Part shown: piece by piece, positions 3,360 to 19,146 of the stretch
Numbering within the stretch: the stretch's first letter is position 1
Layout: every line of letters begins with the position of its first letter
Source: Propionibacteriaceae bacterium
Lineage (GTDB): Bacteria; Actinomycetota; Actinomycetes; Propionibacteriales; Propionibacteriaceae
Direction: 5' to 3'
Assembly (NCBI GenBank): GCA_031285505.1
Contig: JAITVZ010000065.1
Location: forward strand, 1 to 25,110
DNA: 25,110 bases
Translations under genes and position numbers: made by a program
Notes under the pieces: model-generated
What the model was told of the DNA's origin: nothing
Seen by the model: only the letters and a program-made list of their open reading frames with translations
Database searches by the model: none

Positions 3360-3770
3360 TCAAACCAGCACGACAGTGATCAGGCCGCCCAGTTGCTGGA
3401 AGCCGGATAGATCGCGGGTGGCGACCGTCAGGCCGTGGGCCAGTGCCGTGGCGGCGATCATGCGGTCAATGCGCCGAGCTTTGACATCGCCTTCACGATC
3501 CGCGACATGCGCACAAATGCGCTGATAAGCGTTGACACATTGGTCATCGTATGGAATTCCCGGGCCGAAGAGGTTCGTCAACCCCTGGTATCTGGCCCAT
3601 CGCTGGCGGAAAACCTGCAGATCCCTTGTTGAGTAGATGCCCATGACCAGTTCTGAGAAACTGAGGCTCGACACAGTCAATCCGCTGTGTGCGCTGAGAT
3701 CGGGCGTCTGCTCGCCAGGTTCTCCGGTCGCGATCAGCACATTCGTGTCGAGGAGGACTACCGAACCCAT
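3360..3770 (-). CDS. vapC: PIN-domain toxin (VapC type).
   Basis: Starts MGSVVLLDTNVLI, the typical acidic PIN N-terminus. It overlaps the upstream antitoxin gene by 13 bp. Confidence 0.75.
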   Translation of the reverse strand: MGSVVLLDTNVLIATGEPGEQTPDLSAHSGLTVSSLSFSELVMGIYSTRDLQVFRQRWARYQGLTNLFGPGIPYDDQCVNAYQRICAHVADREGDVKARRIDRMIAATALAHGLTVATRDLSGFQQLGGLITVVLV

Positions 3771-4012
3771 GGGTCATCTGCCTGATCCGCCAAACGGTCG
3801 GCAGCAACTTCCCCAGACCAGCCTTTATCCACAGGGGTGGCCGCCAACAAGGCAGTGAATTGCTCAGCGGCGGCAGTTTTCACGCGAGTCGGGGGCACCA
3901 ATCTAGCGACCTCTTGGTGATAGCGGGTCACCGTAACGGATTCGCCATCGATCACTGACTCGATGAATCTGGTTGGGTTTTGTCGCAGTTGCGCAATAGA
4001 AACCGTCTGCAT
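3758..4012 (-). CDS. Phd/YefM-type antitoxin partner of the PIN toxin.
   Basis: 84 aa, MQTVSIAQLRQNPTRFIESVIDGESVTVTRY... resembles Phd/YefM. Sits immediately upstream of the PIN gene on the same strand with overlap. Confidence 0.65.
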   Translation of the reverse strand: MQTVSIAQLRQNPTRFIESVIDGESVTVTRYHQEVARLVPPTRVKTAAAEQFTALLAATPVDKGWSGEVAADRLADQADDPWVR

Positions 4013-4109: not shown

Positions 4110-4889
4110 ATGACTAATCCGACCAAGATCACCCGCCGACTGATCGCCAGCGGACTGGCTGTCTTTTGCATGGCCGCGGCGCTGACCCCAACCGCCCAGG
4201 CCGACGACACTCAACCCTTGACTGTCACACCAACCGGTTGGGTGGCCACTGGCTCCCAGTTCACGGTCTCCGGCGCCGACTGCGCCGCCAAGAACAACGG
4301 CTCCGACGAGGTCGTCATCACCGCCAGTTATGGCAGCGGCTCCGACTCTTGGGTGGTCAAGCCGGCCGCCGACGGCAGTTGGTCGACCGATCGGATCGCC
4401 GCCTACTGGGGCAACGGGCAGATCAGCGCCACCTGCGTGATGTACGACGAGTCAACCCCAAGCACCCAGGCCGCCAAACTGACCGAACCAGCAGCCGCTG
4501 GCATAGCCGCGGCGGCGGCATCGACCCGCCGCACCTTCGACTATGTCGCCCAGCCTTACGCCTTCACCGGCTTCGCTGCCAAGGGTGAGGTGACCGCCGG
4601 GGCGACAGTCACCATCAGCGGTGGCGGTTATGCGCCTGGTGAGACGGTCAGCTTCACCATCGGAAACGGCTTCTTCGCCAGCCTGGTGGCCGACGCCCAA
4701 GGCAACATCAAGGGCCAGATCACCATTCCGGCTGACGCCACTGTCGCCGGCGCGGCGGTCACCGCCCAAGGCCAAAGCAGCCGCCGAGCCGTCAGCGACG
4801 CCGTCGTGGCGGTCGCCGCCCCGGTATATAAGGCCGAAGTCGGCACCCCCACCTATGTCATGCCGGCCCTCGGCACTGACGTCATCTGA
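4110..4889 (+). CDS. Secreted Ala/Gly-rich hypothetical protein with signal peptide. Its C-terminal Ig-like segment resembles one in the LRR protein.
   Basis: Signal peptide MTNPTKITRRLIASGLAVFCMAAALTPTAQA. AGGAAGG RBS. GFAAKGEVTAGATVTISGGGYAPGETVSFTIGNG parallels GFLPGEQVKVTVHS...SFTIPEG of the 75..2057 protein. Confidence 0.6.
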   Translation: MTNPTKITRRLIASGLAVFCMAAALTPTAQADDTQPLTVTPTGWVATGSQFTVSGADCAAKNNGSDEVVITASYGSGSDSWVVKPAADGSWSTDRIAAYWGNGQISATCVMYDESTPSTQAAKLTEPAAAGIAAAAASTRRTFDYVAQPYAFTGFAAKGEVTAGATVTISGGGYAPGETVSFTIGNGFFASLVADAQGNIKGQITIPADATVAGAAVTAQGQSSRRAVSDAVVAVAAPVYKAEVGTPTYVMPALGTDVI

Positions 4890-4955
4890 CTCGCCGCAGC
4901 TGGCTGTCAACCAGCGGCAAATCGCCGCAAATCAACCCTTCCGAAGAGCCCGCCA

Positions 4956-5074
4956 CCTTGAGGTGGGTTGGCCAACTTTCCAGCCAGAAAGCGGTGGCCA
5001 ACCCACCTCAAGGGACAGCACTTGCGCTAAGGCCAAGAGTGATCGGCGTGACCGGGCTAACCCACCTCAAGGGA
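4956..5074. repeat. Intergenic repeat element. A perfect 19-bp inverted repeat (CCTTGAGGTGGGTTGGCCA at 4956-4974 / TGGCCAACCCACCTCAAGG at 4995-5013) is separated by a 20-nt loop. A third partial direct copy (AACCCACCTCAAGGGA) lies at 5059-5074.
   Basis: Seen directly. Lies between the 4110..4889 gene and the sortase-like gene. Confidence 0.6.
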
Positions 5075-7252: not shown

Positions 7253-8629
7253 TTGATTGGAACTTACATGCCTGACCAAACCCCCGCCGATTCACCGCAA
7301 CGACCCAACCAGCCTCGCCCAGCCACCCCACCAGTGCCGACTGGCCCCAGCCGCCCATTATCAGCCGTCAAACCACGAATCATCGGCCAGACCAGCGACC
7401 GCTTAGCCGATCCCGTTGGCCCGGCGGTGGAGACTACGACGCCCAGCGACCACCCCGCGTCCAACACCCCGGCTACTGCCGACGGCTCTGCGCTTTCGGC
7501 CGCCAAACCAAAGGCCTCAGATGGCAGCTCCGCGGCCACTGTCAGCCCCCAGGCAAACCGCCCGTCGACCTCAGCTGATCAAGCGGCGCCCCATCTTGGC
7601 GGTGTCAATGCTCAGCTCAGCACCTCAAGCGCGACCGAAGCAGCATCTCTACCATCGAAGAGCGGCCTGTCGGCTGGCCCGGCCTCCTCCGGTAGGCCCC
7701 AGCCGACAGCTGCCATCGTCAACGAGGCTGCCGCCACCACCGATCCCCTGTCCGAGCGCCCGGCTTACAACATCGACGGCATCCTTGGCCTGTTGGTGGT
7801 TCTGGTCGGCTTCATCGGCGGCATCTTGCTCTGCGTTTTCGCTGGAGTCACCTCTCGTGATGGTTCGCTGACCGCCGGAGGCACCGCCATGCTGATCCTC
7901 GGGCTGCTGCTGTTGGTGGTCGACATGCTGGCCTGGACCAGTCTGACGGTGGTGGCCCCCGGCACCACCAAGGTCCTGCAATTCTTCGGCAATTATGTCG
8001 GCACTGTTCGCACGACCGGCTTGCGGCTGGTGATGCCTTTGACCAACAAACGGGCCGTCTCGGTCAAGGTACAAAACTTCGAGACCCGCGAGATCAAGGT
8101 CAACGATTCGCAGGGCAACCCGGTGATCATCGCCGCCATCATTGTCTGGCAGGTCCATGACACCGCCAAAGCCGTCTTCAGCGTCGAGAAATATGAGAAA
8201 TTTGTCACTGTCCAAGCCGAGGCGGCCCTGCGTCATATCGCCACCATCCACCCCTACGACAACGGTGAGGCTGGCGAAGCCACGCTGCGCGGCGCCACCG
8301 ATCAAGTGGCCGCCGAATTGGCCAAGGAAGTGGCCGAGCGGGTGGCAATTGCCGGAGTCACCATCACCGAGACGCGGATCTCATCCTTGTCATACGCGCC
8401 GGAAATCGCCTCGGCGATGCTGCAGCGCCAACAGGCCCAAGCGGTGTTGGCCGCTCGGGCGAAGATCGTCGAAGGGGCGGTCACCATGGTCGAGTCAGCC
8501 CTGGACCGCCTCGAACGCGAAGACGTCGTCAAGCTGAATGACGACCGCAAGGCCGCCATGGTGTCAAACCTGCTGGTGGTGCTCTGCTCTGATTCTCGTG
8601 CCATGCCGACGGTCAACACCGGGGCGTGA
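7253..8629 (+). CDS. SPFH/Band-7 (stomatin/flotillin-like) membrane protein with a long Pro/Ala/Ser-rich N-terminal region and two TM segments. True start may be ATG at 7268.
   Basis: SPFH-like core VLQFFGNYVGTVRTTGLRLVMPL...QNFETREIKVNDSQGNPVIIAAIIVWQV. Hydrophobic helices LLVVLVGFIGGILLCVF and MLILGLLLLVVDML. Confidence 0.7.
   Translation: MIGTYMPDQTPADSPQRPNQPRPATPPVPTGPSRPLSAVKPRIIGQTSDRLADPVGPAVETTTPSDHPASNTPATADGSALSAAKPKASDGSSAATVSPQANRPSTSADQAAPHLGGVNAQLSTSSATEAASLPSKSGLSAGPASSGRPQPTAAIVNEAAATTDPLSERPAYNIDGILGLLVVLVGFIGGILLCVFAGVTSRDGSLTAGGTAMLILGLLLLVVDMLAWTSLTVVAPGTTKVLQFFGNYVGTVRTTGLRLVMPLTNKRAVSVKVQNFETREIKVNDSQGNPVIIAAIIVWQVHDTAKAVFSVEKYEKFVTVQAEAALRHIATIHPYDNGEAGEATLRGATDQVAAELAKEVAERVAIAGVTITETRISSLSYAPEIASAMLQRQQAQAVLAARAKIVEGAVTMVESALDRLEREDVVKLNDDRKAAMVSNLLVVLCSDSRAMPTVNTGA
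8393..8629 (+). repeat. Direct repeat copy 1 (237 bp), the intact 3' end of the SPFH gene.
   Basis: Base-by-base alignment with 9372-9607. Identity is about 95 percent, with several substitutions and one 1-bp indel. Confidence 0.85.
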
Positions 8630-8736
8630 TGTGACAAACGGGCAATCCACCCTGAAAGCCTTCCTCAGAACAACACTCTTAGATACTTTTGATTGCTTTT
8701 GGTGCACCACCGTTCACTAAAAGCATGAACTCTAAG

Positions 8737-9015
8737 TCAGCCATTGAATGGTTGGGAATGTTGATACAGATATTCTGGTGACACATCAATATTGACGTCT
8801 GGCCAGGTTGGCACACCGCCATCAAGTGCAACGCGCGTAAATGTTTGAGTATCGCGCAATTGTGCGAACACTCCAGCGCTCAGGAGTGGCGTCATATCAA
8901 CGGTTTTCTCTTCGCCGGTGGAGAAGCGTAGCCATAGTCGGTGATCAGGTTGGGCTTGAATACCGACCACGGTGATAAGTGGTTCAGCGTAAGCGATTCC
9001 ATTGATAATATGCAT
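8737..9015 (-). CDS. DUF2442-family small protein, downstream member of a DUF4160/DUF2442 pair.
   Basis: 92 aa. LWLRFSTGEEKTVDMTPLL...WPDVNIDVSPEYLY resembles DUF2442 conservation. Lies in an A+T-rich segment. Confidence 0.6.
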   Translation of the reverse strand: MHIINGIAYAEPLITVVGIQAQPDHRLWLRFSTGEEKTVDMTPLLSAGVFAQLRDTQTFTRVALDGGVPTWPDVNIDVSPEYLYQHSQPFNG

Positions 9016-9024
9016 ATTAGTAAT

Positions 9025-9291
9025 TCATCGTAATGGGTCGATAGGAGCGAATGGCTCGCCACGAACAGCTTTGTTCCATGCGGCATATACGGCCTCTTCG
9101 TGAATAGCGAGCCAAGCGACAACGAGCTTCAATTGCTTGACAGGCAAGCTGCCAGCAAGTAGCTCCCCATCAACGCCAATTGAGGCGTTATGTTCTCCAT
9201 AATAAGCATGGATGTGTGGTTTACTGTGTTGACCGGTATCGGAATAAATAAGCTTGATGAGAATACCGAAAAACCGTGACAACTCAGGCAT
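9025..9291 (-). CDS. DUF4160-family small protein, upstream member of the pair. Start refined to MPELSRFFGI.
   Basis: AAGGAGG RBS 6 nt upstream of ATG at 9291. PHIHAYYGE motif typical of DUF4160. The ORF track's longer start (9327) lacks an RBS. Confidence 0.6.
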   Translation of the reverse strand: MPELSRFFGILIKLIYSDTGQHSKPHIHAYYGEHNASIGVDGELLAGSLPVKQLKLVVAWLAIHEEAVYAAWNKAVRGEPFAPIDPLR

Positions 9292-9371
9292 GACGTACCT
9301 CCTTGGTGGATGCCAGTTTAGCACCATTGCCCGAACGGTGCCGTGGCTAGAAGTGCATTGCCGTCCTGTTT

Positions 9372-9607
9372 TACGCGCCGGAAATCGCCTCGGCGATGCT
9401 GCAGCGCCAACAGGCCCAAGCGGTGTTGGCCGCTCGGGCGAAGATCGTCGAAGGGGCGGTCACCATGGTCGAATCAGCGCTGGACCGCCTCGAACGCGAA
9501 GACGTCGTCAAGCTCAACGACGACCGCAAAGCCGCCATGTGTCAAACCTGCTGGTGGTGCTCTGCTCTGATTCTCGGGCGATGCCGACGGTCAACACCGG
9601 GGCGTGA
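9372..9607 (+). pseudogene. Degenerate, frameshifted duplicate of the SPFH gene 3' end (direct repeat copy 2, 236 bp).
   Basis: Encodes ...[47 protein letters not shown], then shifts frame through a 1-bp deletion (gccatgGtgtca vs gccatgtgtca). No upstream gene body. Confidence 0.8.
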
Positions 9608-9790
9608 AGGCAGGCAAGCCCTCACAATGCATTAGATTTTCGCCTCTCCTAGCCCCTCCGGGCACCAGATGCTCCTTCAAACGAAACCACTCATTCATTC
9701 GCCATCCGACTATCCAGAAGGATTGTGCCCAGACTCGCCAAGACTCACTCATACCGCAGATTTGCTTCCGAGGGAGGGGGGACAATACTC

Positions 9791-9819
9791 TTCCGTAATG
9801 ATATTTCATCCTGTAATAT
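9791..9819 (+). promoter_or_regulatory. Possible sigma70-like promoter TTCCGT-N17-TAATAT upstream of the small precursor-like ORF.
   Basis: Hexamer spacing seen by eye in an A+T-rich stretch. Weak. Confidence 0.25.
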
Positions 9820-9840
9820 CAATGTTAATTGGCGGTTGTC

Positions 9841-10101
9841 ATGAATCATCGACAGTCTAGGATCGTTGCATCGCTCGCAATGATGGCGTCAGTGCTGATA
9901 CCCACAAGCCTATTCCAAGCAGCTACGGCGCTTGGCCTTGGAGTCGGACTTGCCACTTGCCTCTACTGGGGCATTCAGGGCTTCTCTTGGGCAGCCCTTG
10001 CGATGGCGTTCATCGGGGCATTTGATATCGGCGCTGTCGCCGCTTCGGCGATCTGGGCCTACGCCAAGAAGGTCGCTTTGAAGACCTTCCTTACCTGGTG
10101 A
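9841..10101 (+). CDS. Small hydrophobic peptide (86 aa from ATG 9841), a candidate circular-bacteriocin precursor. A probable leader is followed by a ~55-65-aa helical, Trp-rich core ending in C-terminal Trp.
   Basis: MNHRQSRIVASLAMMASVLIPTSLFQAATALGLGVGLATCLYWGIQGFSWAALAMAFIGAFDIGAVAASAIWAYAKKVALKTFLTW. Followed by a strong hairpin and then membrane protein, ABC ATPase and membrane protein genes. Confidence 0.4.
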   Translation: MNHRQSRIVASLAMMASVLIPTSLFQAATALGLGVGLATCLYWGIQGFSWAALAMAFIGAFDIGAVAASAIWAYAKKVALKTFLTW

Positions 10102-10107
10102 TGTGAA

Positions 10108-10148
10108 TAGGCGGGTTGGCGCCACACAAGCGGGCGCCAACCCGCCTA
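10108..10148 (+). terminator. Very stable hairpin (16-bp stem TAGGCGGGTTGGCGCC / GGCGCCAACCCGCCTA, 9-nt loop) immediately after the precursor-like ORF. Likely an attenuator or partial terminator.
   Basis: Perfect inverted repeat starting 7 nt after the stop codon. Confidence 0.55.
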
Positions 10149-10173
10149 CCGTCTGCTCATTGTTGGGAGTGGC

Positions 10174-11583
10174 ATGATGAAATGCGCCAGAGCAAAGAGT
10201 TATTTGCCAATAGTATTTGGCTTCTGGAGCGACGACGCTCGAAGGCTGACGATAAGTCTTACTCGGAGACTGTCATATTGGTTTGACCATGCCCAACTAA
10301 TTGCCCGTTGGTTAATTATATGTCGCGATGCTAGTCCTATTGCAGTTTTGGCACTCCCACTAATTCTTTGCCTAAGACCGGCTGCCAGTTGGCAGAAAGA
10401 CTTGATCGCCCAACTACTGTGTCTAATTGTCTTTCTATCAGTCGGCGACAAGACTGACCGCAATCGGCACTCACAATTGCTGAACGTTGGCCGCAGAATG
10501 CGCCTAGCTTGGCTAGTCGTCCGGCGGCGTTGGACTTTGCCGGCAGTTCTGGCTCTCGTGCTGATGACTACTCTGACTCTGCGGCCAAACATTGCCCTGC
10601 TTGCCTTCGCGGTCGCACTGTCGACAGTCACCCAAAGTTTTCATCTGGTAACTCGCAAGTTGAACCGGTTATACGTCACACTTTCATCTACTGTCGCTTG
10701 GCTAGTTTGGCTATCGGTCGGAATTCACACCGCCACCCTGATCACCGACAACTCGCTTATACGACAGATCAGCAACTGGTGGAACAATATCAGTCTCGAC
10801 CTACCTCTATCATCAATACCCATCGCAGTCTTGAGCGGTGCCTGCGCCTCAGGCTTCACACTCGCTGCTATGAAAATCCTACAATTTCGCCGCGTTATCG
10901 CATGGGAGAAGCTTGCATGGTTACCCATAGGACTCACCAGCTGTCTAGTTTCGGCTATCAGCACTCTTGCGATCATTGCCGTTCGAGACTCCCCTATCAA
11001 ACTTACTCTGGGTAATCTGATCCCAAGCACCGCAATTGTACTTTTGTCGCTTCTCACTGAAGTTCGCCGGTCCCGGCTGGTTTCTCCCGAAGGCCTAGGT
11101 TTCGCCCTGTTCTGGTTGCGGGACCAGGGTGTCCAGTCGACCAAAATTTGGGGCAATGCCCTGCGTTGGAAAGGTTGCCTGTGCAGTGGGGTCATCATCG
11201 TTGAAACGGTCCTATCGCTGACCATAGGCGCTGGCTGGTCAGCCGTGGCGCTACTGCTCGCTGCCATTCTGGCTGCTGCCGGCCTCAATTTACTGATCGT
11301 CTTACGGACTACGGTCCTACTGCCAGCCGGCCAGCTACCTGTTCTCTACTCCAGCACCAGCTCGGGATTGGGCAGCGCCACGATATTGGCCTGTTTACTC
11401 GGCGTCTCAAGCATCAGCCTCGGCATGACGGTCAGCAACATACAGCCGATCGTTTTTTGGCTCGCATCGGCAGTACTGCTGCTTCTCGGAATGAGCACAT
11501 TCTATCTTGGCTTCAATGATGGGCCGCGTTGGTTGACGGTCGTGCGTATCACTATGAATGACACTGAAACCGTGGGGAGCTAA
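10174..11583 (+). CDS. Polytopic integral membrane protein with at least 10 predicted TM helices, in the size and position of a DUF95/SpoIIM-like maturation-secretion protein of circular bacteriocin loci.
   Basis: 469 aa and highly hydrophobic throughout. GGGAG RBS. No catalytic motif recognised, so the family assignment rests on context. Confidence 0.5.
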   Translation: MMKCARAKSYLPIVFGFWSDDARRLTISLTRRLSYWFDHAQLIARWLIICRDASPIAVLALPLILCLRPAASWQKDLIAQLLCLIVFLSVGDKTDRNRHSQLLNVGRRMRLAWLVVRRRWTLPAVLALVLMTTLTLRPNIALLAFAVALSTVTQSFHLVTRKLNRLYVTLSSTVAWLVWLSVGIHTATLITDNSLIRQISNWWNNISLDLPLSSIPIAVLSGACASGFTLAAMKILQFRRVIAWEKLAWLPIGLTSCLVSAISTLAIIAVRDSPIKLTLGNLIPSTAIVLLSLLTEVRRSRLVSPEGLGFALFWLRDQGVQSTKIWGNALRWKGCLCSGVIIVETVLSLTIGAGWSAVALLLAAILAAAGLNLLIVLRTTVLLPAGQLPVLYSSTSSGLGSATILACLLGVSSISLGMTVSNIQPIVFWLASAVLLLLGMSTFYLGFNDGPRWLTVVRITMNDTETVGS

Positions 11584-11585
11584 TC

Positions 11586-12209
11586 GTGATTACCATCAAC
11601 GACTTGTCATTTGCATATGGCAGACATGATGTTCTGAAAAACATGACGGTTGAATTACCCGATCAGGGAGTCGTTAGTCTGACTGGCCCGAATGGGGTGG
11701 GAAAGACCACCCTATTAAAGGCGCTTGGTGGGCTTTTCGACTGCAGTATTGATATTTGCCCGCCACGAACTTCCGGAAGTTGGCGATATTTTGACGCCGA
11801 TTTCTTATCACTGGACCACCTCACCGTCAGCGAATTTGTTGGTCTAATGTTGGCAGCTGACTTGAGTGGCTCAGTCGCCGCGACAAAAATCGCCACTCTC
11901 ATAGATGATCTTAAGGACCAAACCGTTGGAGCATTATCACTGGGGCAAAGCCAGCGTCTTGTCTTGGTATTAGCCTTGAATAGTCAGTTCGACGTGCTCC
12001 TGCTGGATGAGCCATTCAACGCCCTTGATACCATCAACATCGGCATCATCGAAGAGCTCATCAGCGAGGCAGGCCGTGATCATTTAGTAATCTTTGCCAC
12101 CCACCGAGACGACGTCATGGCTGGTCGGTTGTCAGCCACCGTCAGAATGATTGATAGTGAGACAGCCGAGACGACCTATTTTGATTTAACCAAGTTTGAA
12201 ATCAAGTGA
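11586..12209 (+). CDS. ABC transporter ATP-binding protein (single NBD).
   Basis: Walker A GPNGVGKTT, signature-like LSLGQSQR, Walker B VLLLDEP. GTG start with GGGGAG RBS, 2 bp after the upstream stop. Confidence 0.8.
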   Translation: MITINDLSFAYGRHDVLKNMTVELPDQGVVSLTGPNGVGKTTLLKALGGLFDCSIDICPPRTSGSWRYFDADFLSLDHLTVSEFVGLMLAADLSGSVAATKIATLIDDLKDQTVGALSLGQSQRLVLVLALNSQFDVLLLDEPFNALDTINIGIIEELISEAGRDHLVIFATHRDDVMAGRLSATVRMIDSETAETTYFDLTKFEIK

Positions 12210-12221
12210 TGGGGATCGATC

Positions 12222-12839
12222 ATGAGTTCTGAATTAGCGTCTTCCAACAGAGACGAATCCTCGCGGAATGTTAGCGAGAATTGGCCCCAAATCAGACCTG
12301 CCGACAGGGGGCGATTAATCGAGCGACCCAAACTGCTGAACTGGCTAATTGTGGTGATGGTCGTTGGCTGGTATGCGGCTGCCATGCAAATGGTGGCCAA
12401 GCCGATATTGGATGAGGGGGTGGTCAGAGCCGGTGGCAATAGCGGCTTCGCCTCTGATCATGCCTATCGCCTGTTCCTTTGGGGGGCTTTGCTGATCATG
12501 TCACTGGCGGCGCCATGGTTGATGGCCCTGGTCTTGCGATTGGTCATCCGGGTCGTAGCCAACCAGAGGACCAGCTTCTTCCGTAGCATCAGTGCCGTCT
12601 GTTTCGGCCTAGTGCCATTCATTGTTGTCGTCGTCATCATCCAGGTGGTCACTGGCGCTAGCCCTTACCTGCTGCCTGGATGGCGCTGGATCAATCTGGC
12701 AGTGCTGACCGTGTTGGGAACCCTGATCAGCGTCAGATACCTGCGCCATGAGATTGGCTCGATCGGTCGACAGGTAGCCCTCTTCGCCATTCTCTTCAGC
12801 CTGAATGTGTTATTCATGGTGCCAACCATCGGCTTGTAG
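12222..12839 (+). CDS. Membrane protein (about 4 TM helices), a possible accessory, immunity or permease component. Its 3' end lies in a 334-bp direct repeat.
   Basis: Hydrophobic segments LNWLIVVMVVGWYAAAM, LFLWGALLIMSLAAPWLMALVL, VCFGLVPFIVVVVIIQVV, INLAVLTVLGTLISV. Confidence 0.55.
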   Translation: MSSELASSNRDESSRNVSENWPQIRPADRGRLIERPKLLNWLIVVMVVGWYAAAMQMVAKPILDEGVVRAGGNSGFASDHAYRLFLWGALLIMSLAAPWLMALVLRLVIRVVANQRTSFFRSISAVCFGLVPFIVVVVIIQVVTGASPYLLPGWRWINLAVLTVLGTLISVRYLRHEIGSIGRQVALFAILFSLNVLFMVPTIGL

Positions 12840-12983
12840 AAGTCGGCTCAGCGCAGAGGCCTCTATAAGTTCCGGAAGAACAGTTCCACTCGGTCGGTCG
12901 TCCAGGTGGCGACACCGGTGCCGAAGAAGTCGTGATCCTCGGTCCAGATGGGACAATCGATGGCCAAGGCAGCTGCCAGGACG
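12650..12983. repeat. Direct repeat copy A (334 bp), spanning the 3' end of the 12222..12839 gene, the intergenic spacer and the 3' end of vapC.
   Basis: Aligns without indels to 13587-13920, with about a dozen substitutions. Confidence 0.85.
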
Positions 12984-13291
12984 TGCCAATCATCGGGGTC
13001 ACGTCGGCCGATGCGGGCTAGAGCCTCGTCCCGGAAAGGCGAATAATGCTCCTGCGGCAAAACGGTGATCAACGTCTGCGTCTCGTCCAAGAGGGCTAAG
13101 GCCGCTTCGATTTCGGGCAAACCCCGCCGCCGATAGATGCCTTTGAGTCCACGCTCCGCCTCAGCGACGCAAGCCACCGGCACAACAAAGCCGACTATTC
13201 CCGACTGATTGGAAATCACATTCCTGACTCGGCGTCCAAGCACGGACCGAATCAGGATGTTGGCATCCAAGATGAGGGAGCGCCTAGGCAT
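12863..13291 (-). CDS. vapC: PIN-domain toxin (VapC type). Start refined to MPRRSLILDANILI.
   Basis: PIN N-terminal acidic motif. ATG at 13291 overlaps the antitoxin stop by 8 bp. Confidence 0.75.
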   Translation of the reverse strand: MPRRSLILDANILIRSVLGRRVRNVISNQSGIVGFVVPVACVAEAERGLKGIYRRRGLPEIEAALALLDETQTLITVLPQEHYSPFRDEALARIGRRDPDDWHVLAAALAIDCPIWTEDHDFFGTGVATWTTDRVELFFRNL

Positions 13292-13534
13292 TGCCGGACT
13301 GACGCGATGTTTCGTATTCGCCAATCAACTCATCGGGGTCGACTCCTTGGCGGGACAGCATCGCATCCACCCGTTCGGCCAGCTCATCGAAACGCTGCCG
13401 ATCAAACGGCCGCCGGCGCTCTTGGGGAATGTAGGTGCCAATGACTTGGCCATGTCTGGTCACATCAACCGGAGTGGACGAATCCAAGTAGGTCGACAAC
13501 TCTTCGCGGAACTGTCGGACGCCGACGGTAGGCA
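13284..13534 (-). CDS. Phd/YefM-type antitoxin. Start refined to MPTVGVRQFREELSTYLD.
   Basis: AGGAGA RBS 6 nt upstream of ATG at 13534. The ORF track's GTG start at 13589 is unlikely. Confidence 0.7.
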
Positions 13535-13565
13535 TCGTTATTCTCCTGACTGAAGCCCGTTTAGG

Positions 13566-13585
13566 TGTACTCCAAGTGTACACTG
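13566..13585 (-). promoter_or_regulatory. Candidate operator or promoter element for the vapBC pair. GTGTAC-N5-GTGTACAC contains the perfect palindrome GTGTACAC.
   Basis: Located 30-50 nt upstream of the antitoxin ATG, exactly at the repeat junction. Confidence 0.35.
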
Positions 13586-13586
13586 A

Positions 13587-13920
13587 CACTGGCGCTAGCC
13601 CTTACCTGCTGCCCGGATGGCGCTGGCTGAATCTGGCGTTGCTGACCGTGCTAGGAAGCATCATCAGTGTCAGATACCTGCGCCATGAGATTGGCTCGAT
13701 CGGTCGACAGGTAGCCCTCTTCGCCATTCTCTTCAGCCTGAATGTCTTATTCATGGTGCCAACCATCGGCTTGTGACAGTTGGCACGGCGCAGAGGCCTC
13801 CATAAGTTCCGGAAGAACAGTTCCACCCGGTCGGTCGTCCAGGTGGCGATGCCGGCACCGAATAAGTCGTGATCCTCAGTCCAGATGGGGCAATCGATGG
13901 CCAAGGCAGCTGCCAGGACG
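13587..13920. repeat. Direct repeat copy A' (334 bp). It carries truncated duplicates of the membrane-protein 3' end (13591-13776) and the vapC 3' end (13800-13920, minus strand).
   Basis: Alignment to 12650-12983. Downstream sequence (13921 onward) differs from what follows copy A. Confidence 0.85.
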
Positions 13921-13942
13921 GCAGTGGATCAACCCCGCAACC

Positions 13943-16072
13943 CTAGACCTGGAACCACCCCAGCCACCAGGGCGGCGAATCAATGACTTTCCCACCGGTT
14001 TGGACGGCCTTGGGCGGATTGGCCACTGCTGGAGAATTGGGATCAACCCCGCCCGGCGGGGTCGGCTCAGGATCGACCGAGCAATCCAGCCATTCGGCCG
14101 ATCCCGGCAGAATCTTCGGCGCATCGGTCACCGCGTAGGCGTCGAGCATCGTCTCAATCAGGCTGGAGCCTTCGCCGGCGACGGTCAACCGCAAGCTGAC
14201 CGACGCCCCCACCGGGGCGACGACCTCACCTAGATAGGTCGCCTGCGCGCTGTCTTGGACGATCGAACCTGGGCCCGACGAAGCCGGCGATCCACCCGCC
14301 GACCCAGCTGAACCCGCGGCATCAACCTTCATCGTCACCGTCTGCCAACTGACTCCCCCATCGGTTGACTGCTCCAACCGCAGCTCATCAAGCGGCAGGT
14401 CAGCCGCGCCAGCGGCCATGCCGGTGTGAACAATGATTGGCTGCGCCGTGGCGCCTCGATTGGCAGCATCGATGCCTGGTAGCTCGATATTCGCCGAGCG
14501 CAGCGGTTCGATCCGACCCTCTGCCGAGCCTTGACTGGCCGAATGCCAGCGCCAGCTGGCGGCGATGCTGATCGGCGGGCCCCATTGCGACAAATCGACC
14601 AGGCTGGCCTGACGCAACTCATACTCCTGACCTTGATCTGGCAGTCCAGGAACCACAAGCGGGCTGACACCCGGCGGAACAGCGGCCCTGATCAGCGACT
14701 CGCCACTGCTGAGGTTGACCAGTTCGAGACTGGTCTGTGCCGCACCCTGCAGGCCGGTGGCAGTGAATGACGGCTCGGAGTTGCCCTGCCCATCGCTAAG
14801 CACGTTTGGATAGACAACCATCGTGTCGGCCACACGGCTGGTTTCGAAGCCTGCGGGCTGGTTCAGGGTCAACACCGGCCCACCGATGTCGAGCTGGCTG
14901 ATCTGCCCCAGGGGGAAGACTGTGGCCGGTGTGACGAAGATGGCCGGATCGCTCGGTATCGACGGACCAGTCGGATCAGCAGGATCCTCGGAGTCAATTG
15001 GCGCCGTCGGGTCCCCATCCCCTGAGGTCAGCGGGTAGTCGCTTTCAATCGTCCATGACAGCTGCGGCGACGCCCACAAGCGATACTGGCTGGGCAGAGG
15101 CTGTTCGACCGGGAAGGAGAACAGCGACACCGACCCCGCCGCGGCTGCGTCGGGCCAGGCAACGGTGAACACCTCCTGGACAGTGTCCAAATCACCGCCA
15201 TGGCGATGGCTGACATCGACCGCCGCCAGGTCTCCGGTTTCAGCCGTCAAGACGAAATCAGCCTGTGACAAGCCCGAACGACTGGCCAAAGCATAGACAT
15301 CATCCGGCACGGTCTTCCCATCCAACGAGCAATCGGCCAAGCGATCACCCGGGGGCGTCGCCAAGACGCCGAGCAGATCAAGCTGCCAAGAGCCCAAATT
15401 GTTATCCGCTGTCGGCAGGATCGCCAGAGCATCATCGAGTCGTCGATCAAAGGAGACGACATTGTTGAAATTAGACAGCCAATCACCAGCCGAATTAGAT
15501 AGCCCCAGCCGCGCCGACACGGAGCCATGTCCGGGCAAATCCGGGAGCAGCTCGACCGTCTTGGCAAGGCTGCCATCGAGTTTGAGCGTCGTTGGCTCGG
15601 ACAATGTGAACGGACCAGCCGGCAAAACGGTCACGACATAGCCGCCATCATCGGTCATGACCTGGTCGGTCACCACCAGCGCATAATCACCCTCCACCAG
15701 CGGCATCGACCAGTGGCCGTCGACCATCGGCGTGAAGGTGCTTTGACCGCTATTGATATCGACCAGCGCCACATAGGCCGGCTGTGCCGGATCAGCCCCG
15801 GCGGGTTGACCCAGCAGATTGGTCGCCTCGATGGTCAGATCGTGAGTCACCGGGGCGTTGTTCCAGCCGATTGGTGTGCGAATGAGCTGCCCGAAGGTCG
15901 TGGTGGCGTTGACGTAGCCCCCGACATAGCCGATATCGAAGAGGTTCGGGTGGATTATCACCGTGACGCTGGCTTGACCACCGGCTGGCACAGTGACTGT
16001 GTTGGCCGACAACTCAATCGCTCCGTCGGGTGCTGGGGTGGCGGGCAGCACAAAAACCGACCCAGCCGACAC
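13943..16072 (-). CDS. C-terminal ~709-aa portion of a large subtilase, or a separate beta-sandwich domain protein. No signal peptide. In frame with the upstream S8 ORF and separated from it only by one TGA.
   Basis: Frame arithmetic: the stop at 16124-16126 and the GTG at 16072-16070 are 54 nt apart. The 17 intervening codons have no stop. AQ-rich linker on both sides. Confidence 0.5.
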   Translation of the reverse strand: MSAGSVFVLPATPAPDGAIELSANTVTVPAGGQASVTVIIHPNLFDIGYVGGYVNATTTFGQLIRTPIGWNNAPVTHDLTIEATNLLGQPAGADPAQPAYVALVDINSGQSTFTPMVDGHWSMPLVEGDYALVVTDQVMTDDGGYVVTVLPAGPFTLSEPTTLKLDGSLAKTVELLPDLPGHGSVSARLGLSNSAGDWLSNFNNVVSFDRRLDDALAILPTADNNLGSWQLDLLGVLATPPGDRLADCSLDGKTVPDDVYALASRSGLSQADFVLTAETGDLAAVDVSHRHGGDLDTVQEVFTVAWPDAAAAGSVSLFSFPVEQPLPSQYRLWASPQLSWTIESDYPLTSGDGDPTAPIDSEDPADPTGPSIPSDPAIFVTPATVFPLGQISQLDIGGPVLTLNQPAGFETSRVADTMVVYPNVLSDGQGNSEPSFTATGLQGAAQTSLELVNLSSGESLIRAAVPPGVSPLVVPGLPDQGQEYELRQASLVDLSQWGPPISIAASWRWHSASQGSAEGRIEPLRSANIELPGIDAANRGATAQPIIVHTGMAAGAADLPLDELRLEQSTDGGVSWQTVTMKVDAAGSAGSAGGSPASSGPGSIVQDSAQATYLGEVVAPVGASVSLRLTVAGEGSSLIETMLDAYAVTDAPKILPGSAEWLDCSVDPEPTPPGGVDPNSPAVANPPKAVQTGGKVIDSPPWWLGWFQV

Positions 16073-16123
16073 CTGGGCCTGCTCTTGGGCAGGCTCCTGG
16101 GTTGGGTCTAGAGCTGCGGCCGA

Positions 16124-18238
16124 TCACTGGGCGGCCAGCCCATGCCCTGGCAGCCCCGCCTGGGCCTGGTCTTGAGCCAAAGCCTGCCCAGGGTTAGCCG
16201 TGGGGGCTGTGTCAACGGTGGCCAAACCGCGGCTGGGCACACTGACCAAGGAAGCCGCCAAGTCAAGCATCTGATCCTGATCGCTGAGGTTCTTCCAGGT
16301 CAGGGTGCGCTCAGCCGAAGTGGCGGCTGGCGGGTCGAAAGCGCCGAAATCCAGAGACGAGCTGTCGGGGATGAGATTGGCCGCCAAAGAGGCGGGGATG
16401 TTCAGCAGCCCTGCCCCCTGCTGGAAGACAGCTGAGCCATCCGGCAGCGGACTGGCCCCAGCCATCAAGCGTGATTCAAGACCATCACGATCCAGGGTCG
16501 GGTCCGATTCCAATAGCAGCGCGGCCGCCCCGGCCACCAAGGGGGCCGCCATCGAGGTGCCGTAATAGTTGTCGGAAACATAGCCATCACTGCCCGCGCC
16601 GGCGCCGACCAGACCTGTTGTCAAGGGCATGCCGCTCTCATCGAGCAGGGGGAAGCCGGTCTCATCGACCGGCGCCAAGGCGGCCCCCGGCGCCATGATC
16701 TGCGGGCTGACCGCGCCATCACCGCGCCGCGGCCCAGTCGATGACCACCAACCAAGATTGCCGAATTGGTCGGTCGCCCCAACGGCCAACGCCTCGGAGG
16801 CCGTCGCCGGAGCGTTGATGGCTTGATCGGACATGTCATTGCCGGTTGCCACCACAAACAAACATCCGTATTCAGCAGTCAAAGCGTCAAGCGTCCGAGA
16901 GACCAGCAAGCTGCCGTCGTCGTAATATCCCGGAAAACCCAGACTCATGTTGACGATATCCGCCCCATGACTGGCGGCCCACTCCATGCCCTCGATCACC
17001 TGGGAATCGGTGCCTGAGCCATCGGCGCCGACCACCTTGGCACTGAGCAACTGGGCCTTGGGGGCCACCCCTTGATAGAGGCCAGCCGAGGCGGCGCCAG
17101 TGCCGGCGATCTCCGAAGCGACAAAGGTGCCGTGGCCGTTGTGATCCAAGCCATCACCATCGACTGAGAAATCGACTGTGTCGATCACCTGACCAGCTAA
17201 ATCAGGATGCCGGGTATCGATGCCAGTATCGACCACTGCCACCGTCACACCCTCACCCAGCAACCCGGCGTCATGGGCCTGGTCAGCGCCGATCAATGAC
17301 ATCCAGGCTGGCGTGTCATCGCTGACCTCGGTCAACGCCGTGATTGTCGACAGGTCGAACTGGTGTTGCCGATCCAACCAGATCTGGCTGACAGCCGCAT
17401 TGGCCGCCGAGCGCTGCGACAAGCCCTCAGCGGTCGGTTGGGCCAGGGCTTCGATCAATCCCCAACTGGGAGCCGGACCAGCTTCAACGCTGGTGTCTGC
17501 CCAACCGACCGTGGCGGGCAAAGCCGTCAGCCTGGTCGTCACCGACAGGCCGGCGGCATCCATATCGAATGCCGCTCCACGACTGATGGAGGTCAATGGG
17601 TTGGTCTCGACGATCAGCGGCAGATCACCATTCGGCCCGAGGTCATAGCTGGCCAGAAGGCTGACGTTGAACAGTGCCTGATCCAGACCGTGGCCGATCA
17701 AGGCGACGACGTCTGAGGGGAAAACGAAGATACCATCGGCCGTTTGGGAAATGCTCAGATGGGCTGACCTGCCATCCGGGCGTGGCGCCAACACCGTCGA
17801 TCGCACCGCGCCATTGGCATCAATGAGCACCTGGTCACCGGTGATCAGACGCACTGATGAACCAGCGGCGGTCGAGTTGCTGGCCGATTCAGTGTCATTG
17901 CCCGCCCCGCTGCCATTGGCCAAGCCTGTCTCAACCGTCGGCACCAGCGGCGTCGAATCGGCAGCGGTGACCGGTGCGGCTACGGCCGAAACCCCGCCAA
18001 CGGCAGCCCCAATCAGACTGACCACGGTGGCCACCGCCAACAAGGCGACCCGCACCCGCGGTTGAGCCAGCTGCCGTCGCCGCCCCGGACTGACCATCGT
18101 GCCAGCTGCCCCGGTCGCCCCGGCCGCCCTTGCTCTCCCGCTTGTCCCGCGTACCGCTCTCGGGCCAGACTCCCCTCTCCGGCTACTCCTCGCGCTCACG
18201 CCGCTTGTCGCCATCGGTTCCCCTGTCATCATCGACAC
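16124..18238 (-). CDS. Subtilisin-like serine protease (S8 family), N-terminal part with signal peptide. Probable true start is ATG at 18097.
   Basis: Catalytic triad motifs VAVVDTGID (Asp), HGTFVASEIAG (His), GTSMAAPLVAGAAALL (Ser). Signal-peptide-like VRVALLAVATVVSLIGAAVGGVSAVAA. Confidence 0.8.
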   Translation of the reverse strand: MSMMTGEPMATSGVSARSSRRGESGPRAVRGTSGRARAAGATGAAGTMVSPGRRRQLAQPRVRVALLAVATVVSLIGAAVGGVSAVAAPVTAADSTPLVPTVETGLANGSGAGNDTESASNSTAAGSSVRLITGDQVLIDANGAVRSTVLAPRPDGRSAHLSISQTADGIFVFPSDVVALIGHGLDQALFNVSLLASYDLGPNGDLPLIVETNPLTSISRGAAFDMDAAGLSVTTRLTALPATVGWADTSVEAGPAPSWGLIEALAQPTAEGLSQRSAANAAVSQIWLDRQHQFDLSTITALTEVSDDTPAWMSLIGADQAHDAGLLGEGVTVAVVDTGIDTRHPDLAGQVIDTVDFSVDGDGLDHNGHGTFVASEIAGTGAASAGLYQGVAPKAQLLSAKVVGADGSGTDSQVIEGMEWAASHGADIVNMSLGFPGYYDDGSLLVSRTLDALTAEYGCLFVVATGNDMSDQAINAPATASEALAVGATDQFGNLGWWSSTGPRRGDGAVSPQIMAPGAALAPVDETGFPLLDESGMPLTTGLVGAGAGSDGYVSDNYYGTSMAAPLVAGAAALLLESDPTLDRDGLESRLMAGASPLPDGSAVFQQGAGLLNIPASLAANLIPDSSSLDFGAFDPPAATSAERTLTWKNLSDQDQMLDLAASLVSVPSRGLATVDTAPTANPGQALAQDQAQAGLPGHGLAAQ

Positions 18239-18373: not shown

Positions 18374-18408
18374 TGCTGTCATTGACTGCATTTGATATGC
18401 TGACAGCA
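18374..18408 (+). promoter_or_regulatory. Candidate antitoxin operator, inverted repeat TGCTGTCA-N19-TGACAGCA with an embedded palindrome GTCATTGAC.
   Basis: Lies 23-57 nt upstream of the vapB ATG. Resembles the TGCTATCA/TGATAGCA half-sites bound by the RHH antitoxin FitA. Confidence 0.4.
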
Positions 18409-18430
18409 TTTCTTCTTGAAGGAGGGGATC

Positions 18431-18688
18431 ATGGCTGCAACTATCACCGTGCGGAACCTGAGTGAGGACACCCAACGTGTCTTGCGGCACCGAGCTATCG
18501 ACCACAATCAGTCATTCGAAGCTGAAGTCAGGCAAATTCTCACTGAAGCCGCACAAGCGAGTTCATCAACGGCAACACCAGCGGCAACCATCTTCGCGGC
18601 TGCAGACCAGTTCCGGAAAGCAACCTCTGGTCTCGGCTTCACCCTGCCACCCCGTCTTGACGAAACACAAAGAGACGTAAATCTATGA
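18431..18688 (+). CDS. vapB: Ribbon-helix-helix antitoxin (VapB/FitA-like).
   Basis: MAATITVRNLSEDTQRVLRHRAIDHNQSFEAEVRQIL is a classic RHH antitoxin N-terminus. GAAGGAGGGG RBS. ATGA overlap with the downstream PIN gene. Confidence 0.75.
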   Translation: MAATITVRNLSEDTQRVLRHRAIDHNQSFEAEVRQILTEAAQASSSTATPAATIFAAADQFRKATSGLGFTLPPRLDETQRDVNL

Positions 18689-19146
18689 TTATCCTCGACA
18701 CGAACATCGTTTCGGCGCTCTTTGTCTCAACGCACCAGGACCACCGGCAATTGAGAACATGGTGTGACGCTTGCCTCGATCAAGAGTTTCGCATCTGCGC
18801 GCCGACTCTCGCTGAGATTGAATATGGGATCGCCATCCTGCCGGCAGGCGCTCGCAAGGAACAACTGATCCACGAGGCACACCTTTTCCTTTCCAAGACA
18901 GCACAATGGATCCTGCCCTTCGGAGCGCGTGACGCCAGTGAATACGCGATCATCACGGCCCAAAGACGACCCATTAGCATCTTCGATGCTCAAATCGCTG
19001 CCATCACTCGCACGGCCGGAGCCACCTTAGCCACCCGGAACATCAAAGACTTTGAGAACTGTGGCATCACTCTTGTCAATCCCTACCAGATCACCTTCTC
19101 TGCACAGGCGGATCATGGTGAACCAGTCGACCGGAACAACCAATAG
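18685..19146 (+). CDS. vapC: PIN-domain toxin (VapC/FitB-like).
   Basis: MIILDTNIVSALF... PIN signature. 4-bp overlap with the antitoxin. Confidence 0.75.
   Translation: MIILDTNIVSALFVSTHQDHRQLRTWCDACLDQEFRICAPTLAEIEYGIAILPAGARKEQLIHEAHLFLSKTAQWILPFGARDASEYAIITAQRRPISIFDAQIAAITRTAGATLATRNIKDFENCGITLVNPYQITFSAQADHGEPVDRNNQ

Follow-up and report, generated by a model that had tools for sequence, protein, structure and literature searches.

Layout of the SPFH Locus

The window analyzed here is the complete 25,110-bp contig JAITVZ010000065.1 of a Propionibacteriaceae metagenome bin, and its locus of interest is an SPFH gene whose 3′ end occurs twice, once on each side of a small insert that carries a predicted DhiTA-type toxin-antitoxin operon. 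A genome scan identified termite-gut bins as the nearest relatives of this genome, and a cluster look-up found the proteins of the window to be the sole members of their own clusters. The guanine-plus-cytosine (GC) content of the whole window is 60.7%, and it is 61-64% around the insert. The features at the locus are as follows.

7268..8629, plus strand: SPFH/Band_7 (HflC-like) gene, intact, 453 amino acids (Pfam PF01145, E = 5.8e-21; NCBI/JGI records P0241, P0001)
8393..8629, plus strand: repeat copy 1 (237 bp), the last 78 codons and stop of the SPFH gene, functional (alignment, codon analysis)
8630..9371, minus strand: insert of 742 bp with 48.4% GC, carrying a predicted DhiTA-type toxin-antitoxin operon (GC content, repeat search, Pfam)
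8737..9015, minus strand: DUF2442 gene, 92 amino acids, homologue of the DhiA antitoxin (Pfam PF10387, E = 2.4e-14)
9025..9291, minus strand: DUF4160 gene, 88 amino acids, homologue of the DhiT toxin and first in the operon (Pfam PF13711, E = 3.4e-18, profile positions 1-65 of 65)
9364..9372, no strand assigned: novel joint of the insert end to the SPFH interior, with an imperfect microhomology, TCCTGT versus TCCTTGT at 8384-8390
9372..9607, plus strand: repeat copy 2 (236 bp), 3′ end of an SPFH allele without its 5′ part, frameshifted by a 1-bp deletion at 9539

Alignment confirmed the preliminary description of this locus in that a duplicated SPFH 3′ end, 237 bp on one side and 236 bp with a 1-bp deletion and a frameshift on the other, flanks exactly the 742-bp insert. 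Copy 1 is in frame with the SPFH gene and starts at a codon boundary, and a TGA stop forms the exact end of both copies. The copies differ by seven substitutions and one 1-bp gap (GG at 8560-8561 in copy 1, a single G at 9539 in copy 2), with a blastn E value of 2.6e-112. Identity extends over 230 of 237 aligned bases, or 96.6% with the gap counted, and the earlier figure of about 95% was thus recomputed as about 97%. The GC content of the repeats is 64.5%. Leftward of the repeat, local alignment detected only a weak similarity over about 9 nt (8384/9364, TCCTTGT versus TCCTGT). Copy 2, at 236 bp, is a pseudogene remnant and not a gene.

The SPFH gene is taken here from the ATG at 7268, as in the NCBI model, whereas the longest open reading frame (ORF) starts at TTG 7253. 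Its protein has an N-terminal extension of about 230 residues (7268-7950) that is rich in Pro, Ala, and Ser and is absent from the relatives, which are 270-380 amino acids long. The gene adjoins sortase and LytR-family genes, whereas the neighborhood in the relatives is sucB-SPFH-menB.

In the insert, the toxin gene is followed by the antitoxin gene after a gap of 9 nt, and the noncoding parts comprise 80 nt upstream and 107 nt downstream of the operon. Both proteins of the pair are full length. The DUF4160 protein, with 88 amino acids, equals about 100 relatives in length, and the order DUF4160 then DUF2442 was found in 77 of 80 related loci. The DUF4160/DUF2442 pair of Dickeya dadantii 3937 (DhiT/DhiA) is a validated toxin-first type II toxin-antitoxin system, for which toxicity, neutralization, and promoter co-repression have been demonstrated (PMC8198452). 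DUF4160 doubles as an effector domain in the Menshen defense system (PMC12065111). Judged by its domains and gene order, the gene pair of the insert matches the DhiTA family of type II toxin-antitoxin systems. The short length of the insert, which had initially been left unexplained, is now accounted for, because the insert amounts to a toxin-antitoxin operon of minimal size, and similarly flanked inserts of the same family measure 659-1068 bp elsewhere. Divergence within the pair is uneven, with the toxin 84-85% identical to its nearest relatives (P0123, P0124; loci L006, L008) and the antitoxin 52-54%. A promoter and terminator scan of 8300-10000 found nothing near the cassette.

Codon Analysis of the Two Copies

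Codon analysis located all seven substitutions between the copies at third codon positions, and all seven were synonymous, which corresponds to a synonymous divergence (dS) of about 0.12 and a nonsynonymous divergence (dN) of 0. Synonymous changes make up 26% of the possible single-base changes in the repeat stretch. Seven of seven would accordingly be expected with P ~8e-5 if both copies had been free to drift, and with P ~0.002 if copy 1 had been constrained and only the fragment had drifted. When the SPFH repeats were combined with the repeats at a PIN_2 toxin gene of the same contig (described below), the third-position excess had a binomial P of 4.5e-5. The synonymous-only differences indicate that divergence took place in two lineages, with each copy still belonging to a functional SPFH gene. 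The codon pattern therefore supports the view that they were working SPFH alleles of separate lineages and would have been joined later. An origin of the copies in different, related lineages had already been proposed from their percent identity, and the synonymous-only substitutions give it a stronger footing.

The 1-bp deletion is the only sign of decay in copy 2 since the joining. As copy 2 is frameshifted, it is not simply the working allele of a second strain. The differences are unevenly placed: the first 101 nt of the repeat are identical, and all seven substitutions and the gap fall within the last 136 nt. The identical 101-nt block is presumably the likeliest site of a homologous crossover. 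A switch between two gene ends that would vary the protein was also considered and was rejected, as all differences are synonymous.

Junctions and Proposed History of the Insertion

The junctions 8629/8630 and 9607/9608 fall directly after a TGA stop, as would be expected if two lineages with different DNA after the gene had each contributed a natural gene-end boundary. The sole mid-gene junction is 9371/9372, at which noncoding cassette DNA meets the coding interior of SPFH. Copy 1 most likely came in with the cassette, because it is joined to the cassette exactly at its stop codon, and copy 2 is probably the displaced resident end, because its own stop codon exactly adjoins the downstream DNA. 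The polarity deduced from these stop-codon joints is thus probably the reverse of the one first suggested, in which the second copy was the incoming one.

We consider it fairly probable that the locus is a recombination scar left by the acquisition of a DhiTA cassette from a closely related lineage, an event of the type termed insertion with long target duplication. Directly after the SPFH stop codon, the donor lineage would have carried the cassette and the recipient lineage an ABC-transporter island. The incoming DNA, comprising the last 237 bp of the donor SPFH gene and the cassette, would then have recombined with the resident SPFH gene. One crossover would have been homologous, inside or upstream of the shared SPFH sequence and most likely in the identical 101-bp block, and the join at 9371/9372 would have been illegitimate. 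The SPFH gene would have been kept intact with the incoming 3′ end, while the old resident 3′ end would have been displaced downstream of the cassette, where it would be nonfunctional and would have begun to decay by the 1-bp deletion. No cassette-encoded recombinase would have been involved.

Three routes could have led to this arrangement. The fragment may have circularized, with 9371/9372 as the closure joint, and then integrated by a single Campbell-type crossover. Alternatively, a linear fragment may have undergone one homologous and one illegitimate crossover, the latter at 9371/9372, or a longer merodiploid may later have been trimmed, in which case 9371/9372 would be a deletion end point. 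All three give an identical product, and we make no choice among them. The single crossover with a circular molecule that had been put forward earlier does yield the observed layout, but the linear and trimmed-merodiploid routes do so equally, and the circle is one candidate among the three. Capture of a stray fragment by nonhomologous end joining is unlikely here, since the fragment end coincides exactly with the stop codon.

Recombination between the repeats should normally remove such a structure, and its persistence may reflect the addiction or defense nature of the insert together with the divergence of the repeats. We infer that the toxin-antitoxin pair may help to preserve an otherwise unstable structure.

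Searches for a Donor, an Empty Site, and Mobility Functions

Exact-protein look-ups of the SPFH, DUF4160, and DUF2442 proteins returned no second contig, and a genome scan with SPFH returned only relatives of 50-77% identity, none of which carried the cassette. The closest SPFH protein matches, 80-83% identical, are encoded between sucB and menB or a glycosyltransferase gene, and represent neither an empty site nor a donor. BLAST of 8393-9607 against plasmids and phages likewise matched SPFH genes at only about 70% identity and never the cassette. Hence the BLAST check that had been proposed, for a donor with DUF4160/DUF2442 downstream of SPFH, found none in genomes, plasmids, or phages.

No integrase or transposase was found among the ORFs of the 25-kb contig, and a repeat search found no terminal inverted repeats of the insert. 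The noncoding ends of the insert had no match among 119 related loci, and in alignments with the closest cassettes the similarity starts only at the ribosome-binding site. Rfam detected a single RNA gene in the window, a tRNA-Ser about 10 kb away. A transposon, insertion sequence, or miniature inverted-repeat transposable element was rejected on the grounds that inverted repeats are lacking, the duplications are 21-237 nt long, and the ends are not conserved. An integron cassette with an attC site was rejected given that the repeats are SPFH coding sequence, no integrase gene is present, and the tRNA is the only Rfam hit. A Xer (pdif) site was rejected given that the repeats are locus-specific sequence and not element-specific sites. 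In IMG/VR, 28 viral contigs carry DhiTA relatives, and no flanking repeats were found there except a weak 25-nt match in two of them (L114/L115). Carriage of the cassette by a phage is possible and does not explain the present locus.

A Second Flanked Cassette on the Same Contig

Four toxin-antitoxin loci lie within the 25 kb of the contig, and one besides the DhiTA pair, a PIN_2 toxin gene with its antitoxin gene, is also flanked by diverged direct repeats. Further PIN-type toxin-antitoxin loci lie at 3360-4012 and 18380-19146 of the window, with no flanking repeats at either. The features downstream of copy 2 are as follows.

9608..12647, plus strand: resident downstream DNA, an orphan island encoding a small membrane protein, a 469-amino-acid membrane protein, an ABC ATPase, and a 205-amino-acid membrane protein (composition, Pfam)
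12648..12983, no strand assigned: PIN repeat copy A, holding two gene 3′ ends, that of a membrane-protein gene (to 12839) and that of the PIN_2 toxin gene (from 12863, minus strand)
12984..13584, minus strand: unique segment between the PIN repeats, with the 5′ two-thirds of the PIN_2 toxin gene and the antitoxin gene at 13284-13535 (Pfam PIN_2, E = 2.4e-35; NCBI/JGI records P0245, P0247)
13585..13920, no strand assigned: PIN repeat copy B, pieces of a diverged allele with 92% identity to copy A

The whole PIN_2 gene spans 12863-13291/13324. The PIN repeat thus consists of the converging 3′ ends of the membrane-protein gene and the PIN gene, and its copies are spaced 937 bp apart. Their differences are mostly third-position and synonymous, or else conservative. 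In copy B, the stop of the membrane-protein gene changed from TAG to TGA, a double change that retains the stop, whereas the PIN stop changed from TAG to TGG and was lost. The retained membrane-gene stop indicates that copy B, too, came from a working allele.

The island between the two flanked cassettes has a GC content of about 52% (9608-12840) and could be an immunity or export module. A search meant to find the other lineage of the PIN repeat detected no homologue of the 205-amino-acid membrane protein among 5.8 billion proteins.

Flanking Repeats at Other DhiTA Loci

Eighty metagenome loci with DhiTA relatives were dereplicated to 26 in which each side of the cassette extended for 400 nt or more, and 98 displaced pseudo-cassettes served as controls. 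Direct repeats of target sequence flanked the cassette in 6 of the 26 loci and in 1 of the 98 controls (Fisher P = 3e-4); a seventh locus of the 26 was flanked if wider flanks were allowed. Inverted repeats flanked the cassette in none of the 26. In 500 kb of loci, 19 direct-repeat pairs were detected, 11 of which flank the 0.56-kb gene pair. The GC content of the flanked inserts was usually below that of their surroundings. The flanked pattern is not a one-off.

The repeats were in each case locus-specific target sequence: 21-28 nt of queA just ahead of tgt (its last 7-9 codons and stop), a terminator hairpin of 45-75 nt that belongs to the upstream gene, an intergenic stretch of about 90 nt, or the flanks of an RlaP gene. 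In the closest DhiTA relative (L006), the cassette lies between a complete left flank-gene-right flank unit of RlaP and an 80-nt copy of the two flanks joined to each other. The flanked layout recurs in L007, a separate assembly of this locus with 99.9% identity.

Several contigs have features of their own. In the human-gut contigs L050 (3898-3925/4682-4709) and L079 (3725-3745/4681-4701), the cassette sits between queA and tgt, and the duplicated target is the last codons and stop of queA, so both neighbors keep their normal ends and ribosome-binding site. In L006 (5755-5834 versus 4214-5044), the right repeat is the RlaP region with the gene removed between two GTCA microhomologies. It retains a 9-codon mini-ORF, MTDVLGAID*, and the two copies differ by the presence or absence of the whole gene. 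In L040 (11-57/1259-1309 and 2360-2438/2928-3009) and L041 (1323-1350/2442-2469 and 2439-2473/3130-3164), direct repeats of 30-80 nt, 550-1250 nt apart, occur on both sides of DhiTA and look as if small cassettes were arrayed with a repeated site between them. In L024, a DhiTA cassette with a flanking repeat of about 75 nt that contains a terminator has a gene for a tyrosine recombinase (Phage_integrase; 915-1940) about 750 nt upstream of it. In L001, from a related Propionibacteriaceae bin, two small genes that overlap and a gene for a Q/P-rich membrane protein are covered by a 93-nt direct repeat (3448-3540/5209-5301; 82% identical, 1.76 kb apart).

Assembly Support and Alternative Explanations

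The k=31 Logan contigs of run SRR14710890 provided an independent assembly. One of them (L092) equals positions 9547-12761 of the window at 100%. It begins with the earliest 31-mer that occurs in copy 2 only, and it joins the variants of copy 2 at 9577 and 9580 to the island downstream. Another (L122) equals 12779-13698 at 100% and covers the PIN pair with its joint to copy B, and a third (L121) equals 13716-16141 at 100% and covers copy B with its joint to the next gene. A single read set thus contains the two variants of each repeat, and the displaced copies are truly joined to their downstream DNA.

Metagenome assemblies break at diverged repeats of this kind or may thread them wrongly. An artefact would result if two strains about 3% apart in SPFH, one with the cassette and the other with the ABC island, had been threaded into a chimeric contig, or if copy 2 of an identical-repeat structure (A-insert-A) had been given the variants of the other strain. 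The contig belongs to a metagenome bin and is the sole carrier of its proteins, strain mixing would also give synonymous-only allelic differences, and the Logan contigs break exactly at the shared blocks with both variants in one read set, while the cassette proteins are absent from the Logan records. Nevertheless, the junction of the insert end to the SPFH interior must exist in real molecules for an assembler to build it, and a frameshift in copy 2 is not expected of a working allele. As the identical blocks of the SPFH repeat are at most 101 nt long, 150-nt reads or k-mers of at least about 103 would phase the variants directly. All unique segments and joints of the PIN case were reproduced by the independent assembler, and like structures occur in unrelated assemblies of other habitats and in two assemblies of the L006 locus. 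Taken together, we regard an artefact as unlikely.

A local origin, either by tandem duplication with later divergence in place or from tandem SPFH paralogues of which the second had its 5′ part replaced by the cassette, appears quite unlikely. Divergence in place predicts changes at all codon positions, against which the seven of seven synonymous changes have the P of ~0.002 given above, and a simple tandem duplication neither puts foreign DNA of 48% GC between the copies nor places the end of each repeat copy exactly at the stop codon. Spacings of 979 and 937 bp from start to start do resemble tandem-duplication units, and two working paralogues under selection would likewise differ at synonymous sites only; the paralogue version, however, needs a replacement that starts exactly at the stop codon of the first gene, tandem SPFH genes occur in no relative, and the PIN case would take two separate deletions. 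An equally improbable origin is the remnant or non-autonomous form of an integrative element, in which a tyrosine-recombinase element that brought a surrogate gene end into the SPFH 3′ end later shrank to its cargo, or was mobilized in trans like cis-mobilizable elements (CIMEs), with the 101-bp block as the attachment (att) core. Elements that integrate at 3′ ends restore the gene with their own copy and leave diverged direct repeats, which resembles the identical block followed by a diverged stretch up to the stop seen here, and L024 does have its tyrosine recombinase gene about 750 nt from a flanked cassette. On the other hand, the 25-kb contig contains no integrase, the longest identical block of the PIN repeat (77 nt) lies mid-repeat with both boundaries of the repeat inside genes, and the targets differ completely among loci, with repeats of 21-237 nt that share no att core. 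The cassette ends are not conserved either, and a synonymous-only difference of about 3% suits the allele of a sister strain rather than an old element-borne copy.

Several observations weigh against acquisition of the cassette from a closely related lineage by recombination. A simple crossover does not explain why all differences cluster in the last 136 nt (P ~0.01-0.02). Neither the empty site nor the donor arrangement was found in the searches above, and the insertion is deduced from one sequence. Both joints of the DhiTA insert are covered by the JGI contig alone. The cassette proteins have no Logan record, which is uninformative, since the expected contig would measure 833 nt and the shortest Logan-only contig seen was 904 nt. 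The k=31 graph would equally permit an empty site with a 979-bp circle or a tandem array. The PIN case requires that a truncated PIN remnant was already in the recipient. Finally, DhiTA of Dickeya failed to stabilize an unstable plasmid in Escherichia coli (PMC8198452), which weakens preservation by addiction.

Discussion

The locus is a new example, with toxin-antitoxin cargo, of an already known kind of rearrangement. Its nearest counterpart in the literature is insertion with long target duplication (Nobusato et al. 2000, Gene 259:99; Furuta, Abe & Kobayashi 2010, PMC2853133), in which a small self-preserving unit lies between long target repeats, as here. In the restriction-modification systems described there, the repeats are 46-423 bp long and 93-100% identical, some reach into the 3′ end of an adjacent gene, and transposases, integrases, and inverted repeats are absent (PMC2853133). 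The definition of the event calls for direct repeats of more than 30 bp around an insert of less than 20 kb with a complete gene unit of the addiction type. The present locus has repeats of 237/236 bp and an insert of 742 bp, with the toxin-antitoxin pair substituted for the restriction (R) and modification (M) genes, and the window holds no other mobile element or mobility gene that would account for the insertion. The differences are that the cargo here is a toxin-antitoxin pair and that the restriction-modification cases were defined against an empty-site genome, whereas the closest SPFH relatives here are 80-83% identical (amino acid) and have a different neighborhood. Furthermore, the event was discussed in those cases in connection with DNA breaks made by the restriction enzyme, an activity that DhiT is not known to have. 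Unlike in the restriction-modification cases, the repeats here are demonstrable as alleles of two lineages.

The gene pair itself shares with DhiTA of D. dadantii 3937 (PMC8198452) the order DUF4160 then DUF2442, with the toxin first, the small size of the proteins, and the short gap between the genes, whereas the proteins of the window are distant, come from an actinobacterial metagenome bin, and have predicted functions. The Dickeya locus was described as vertically conserved, and flanking repeats were not mentioned (PMC8198452).

Campbell-type integration and the elements that restore a gene 3′ end, including CIMEs, give the same product, namely a gene end, an insert, and a displaced end with the gene intact. 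Here, by contrast, there is no recombinase, no att core is common to the loci, and the cargo is only 742 bp. The homology is long and allelic, and thus points to homologous and not site-specific recombination. In homology-facilitated illegitimate recombination, a homologous anchor lies beside foreign DNA and the other joint is an illegitimate one at a short microhomology, as here. In its classical form that process replaces or deletes recipient DNA, whereas here the anchor copy of the recipient was kept, which leads to a duplication. Integron cassettes and pdif (Xer) modules with toxin-antitoxin genes are likewise small cassettes between repeats. Their repeats, however, are element-specific sites common to the cassettes (attC hairpins, or 28-bp XerC/D sites in inverse orientation), and here they are locus-specific coding or terminator sequence. 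For toxin-antitoxin cassettes, a full-text literature search of incomplete coverage turned up no account of such a pattern, which is a weak negative.

For restriction-modification units, a life cycle of insertion, amplification via the repeats, and release has been proposed, of which amplification alone has experimental support (PMC2853133). It is conceivable, although we hold this only tentatively, that DhiTA and PIN cassettes are recombinase-free mobile units that carry the end or terminator of a neighboring gene, integrate by homologous recombination, and pop out as circles. If so, such a life cycle would have left its footprint in the flanking repeats seen at about one in four independent DhiTA loci, and cassette toxicity would account for the survival of only this kind of insert between direct repeats. 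This life cycle would be the one that was proposed, and never demonstrated, by Kobayashi's group for restriction-modification systems.

Movement of chromosomal toxin-antitoxin modules without a transposase or integrase is poorly documented, and the present locus offers a clean and dateable example. As the duplicated end differs only at synonymous sites, the event would have been recombination between strains and not a local duplication. The PIN case, together with the enrichment of flanking repeats in 6 of 26 loci versus 1 of 98 controls, suggests that the pattern known from restriction-modification systems extends to toxin-antitoxin cassettes.

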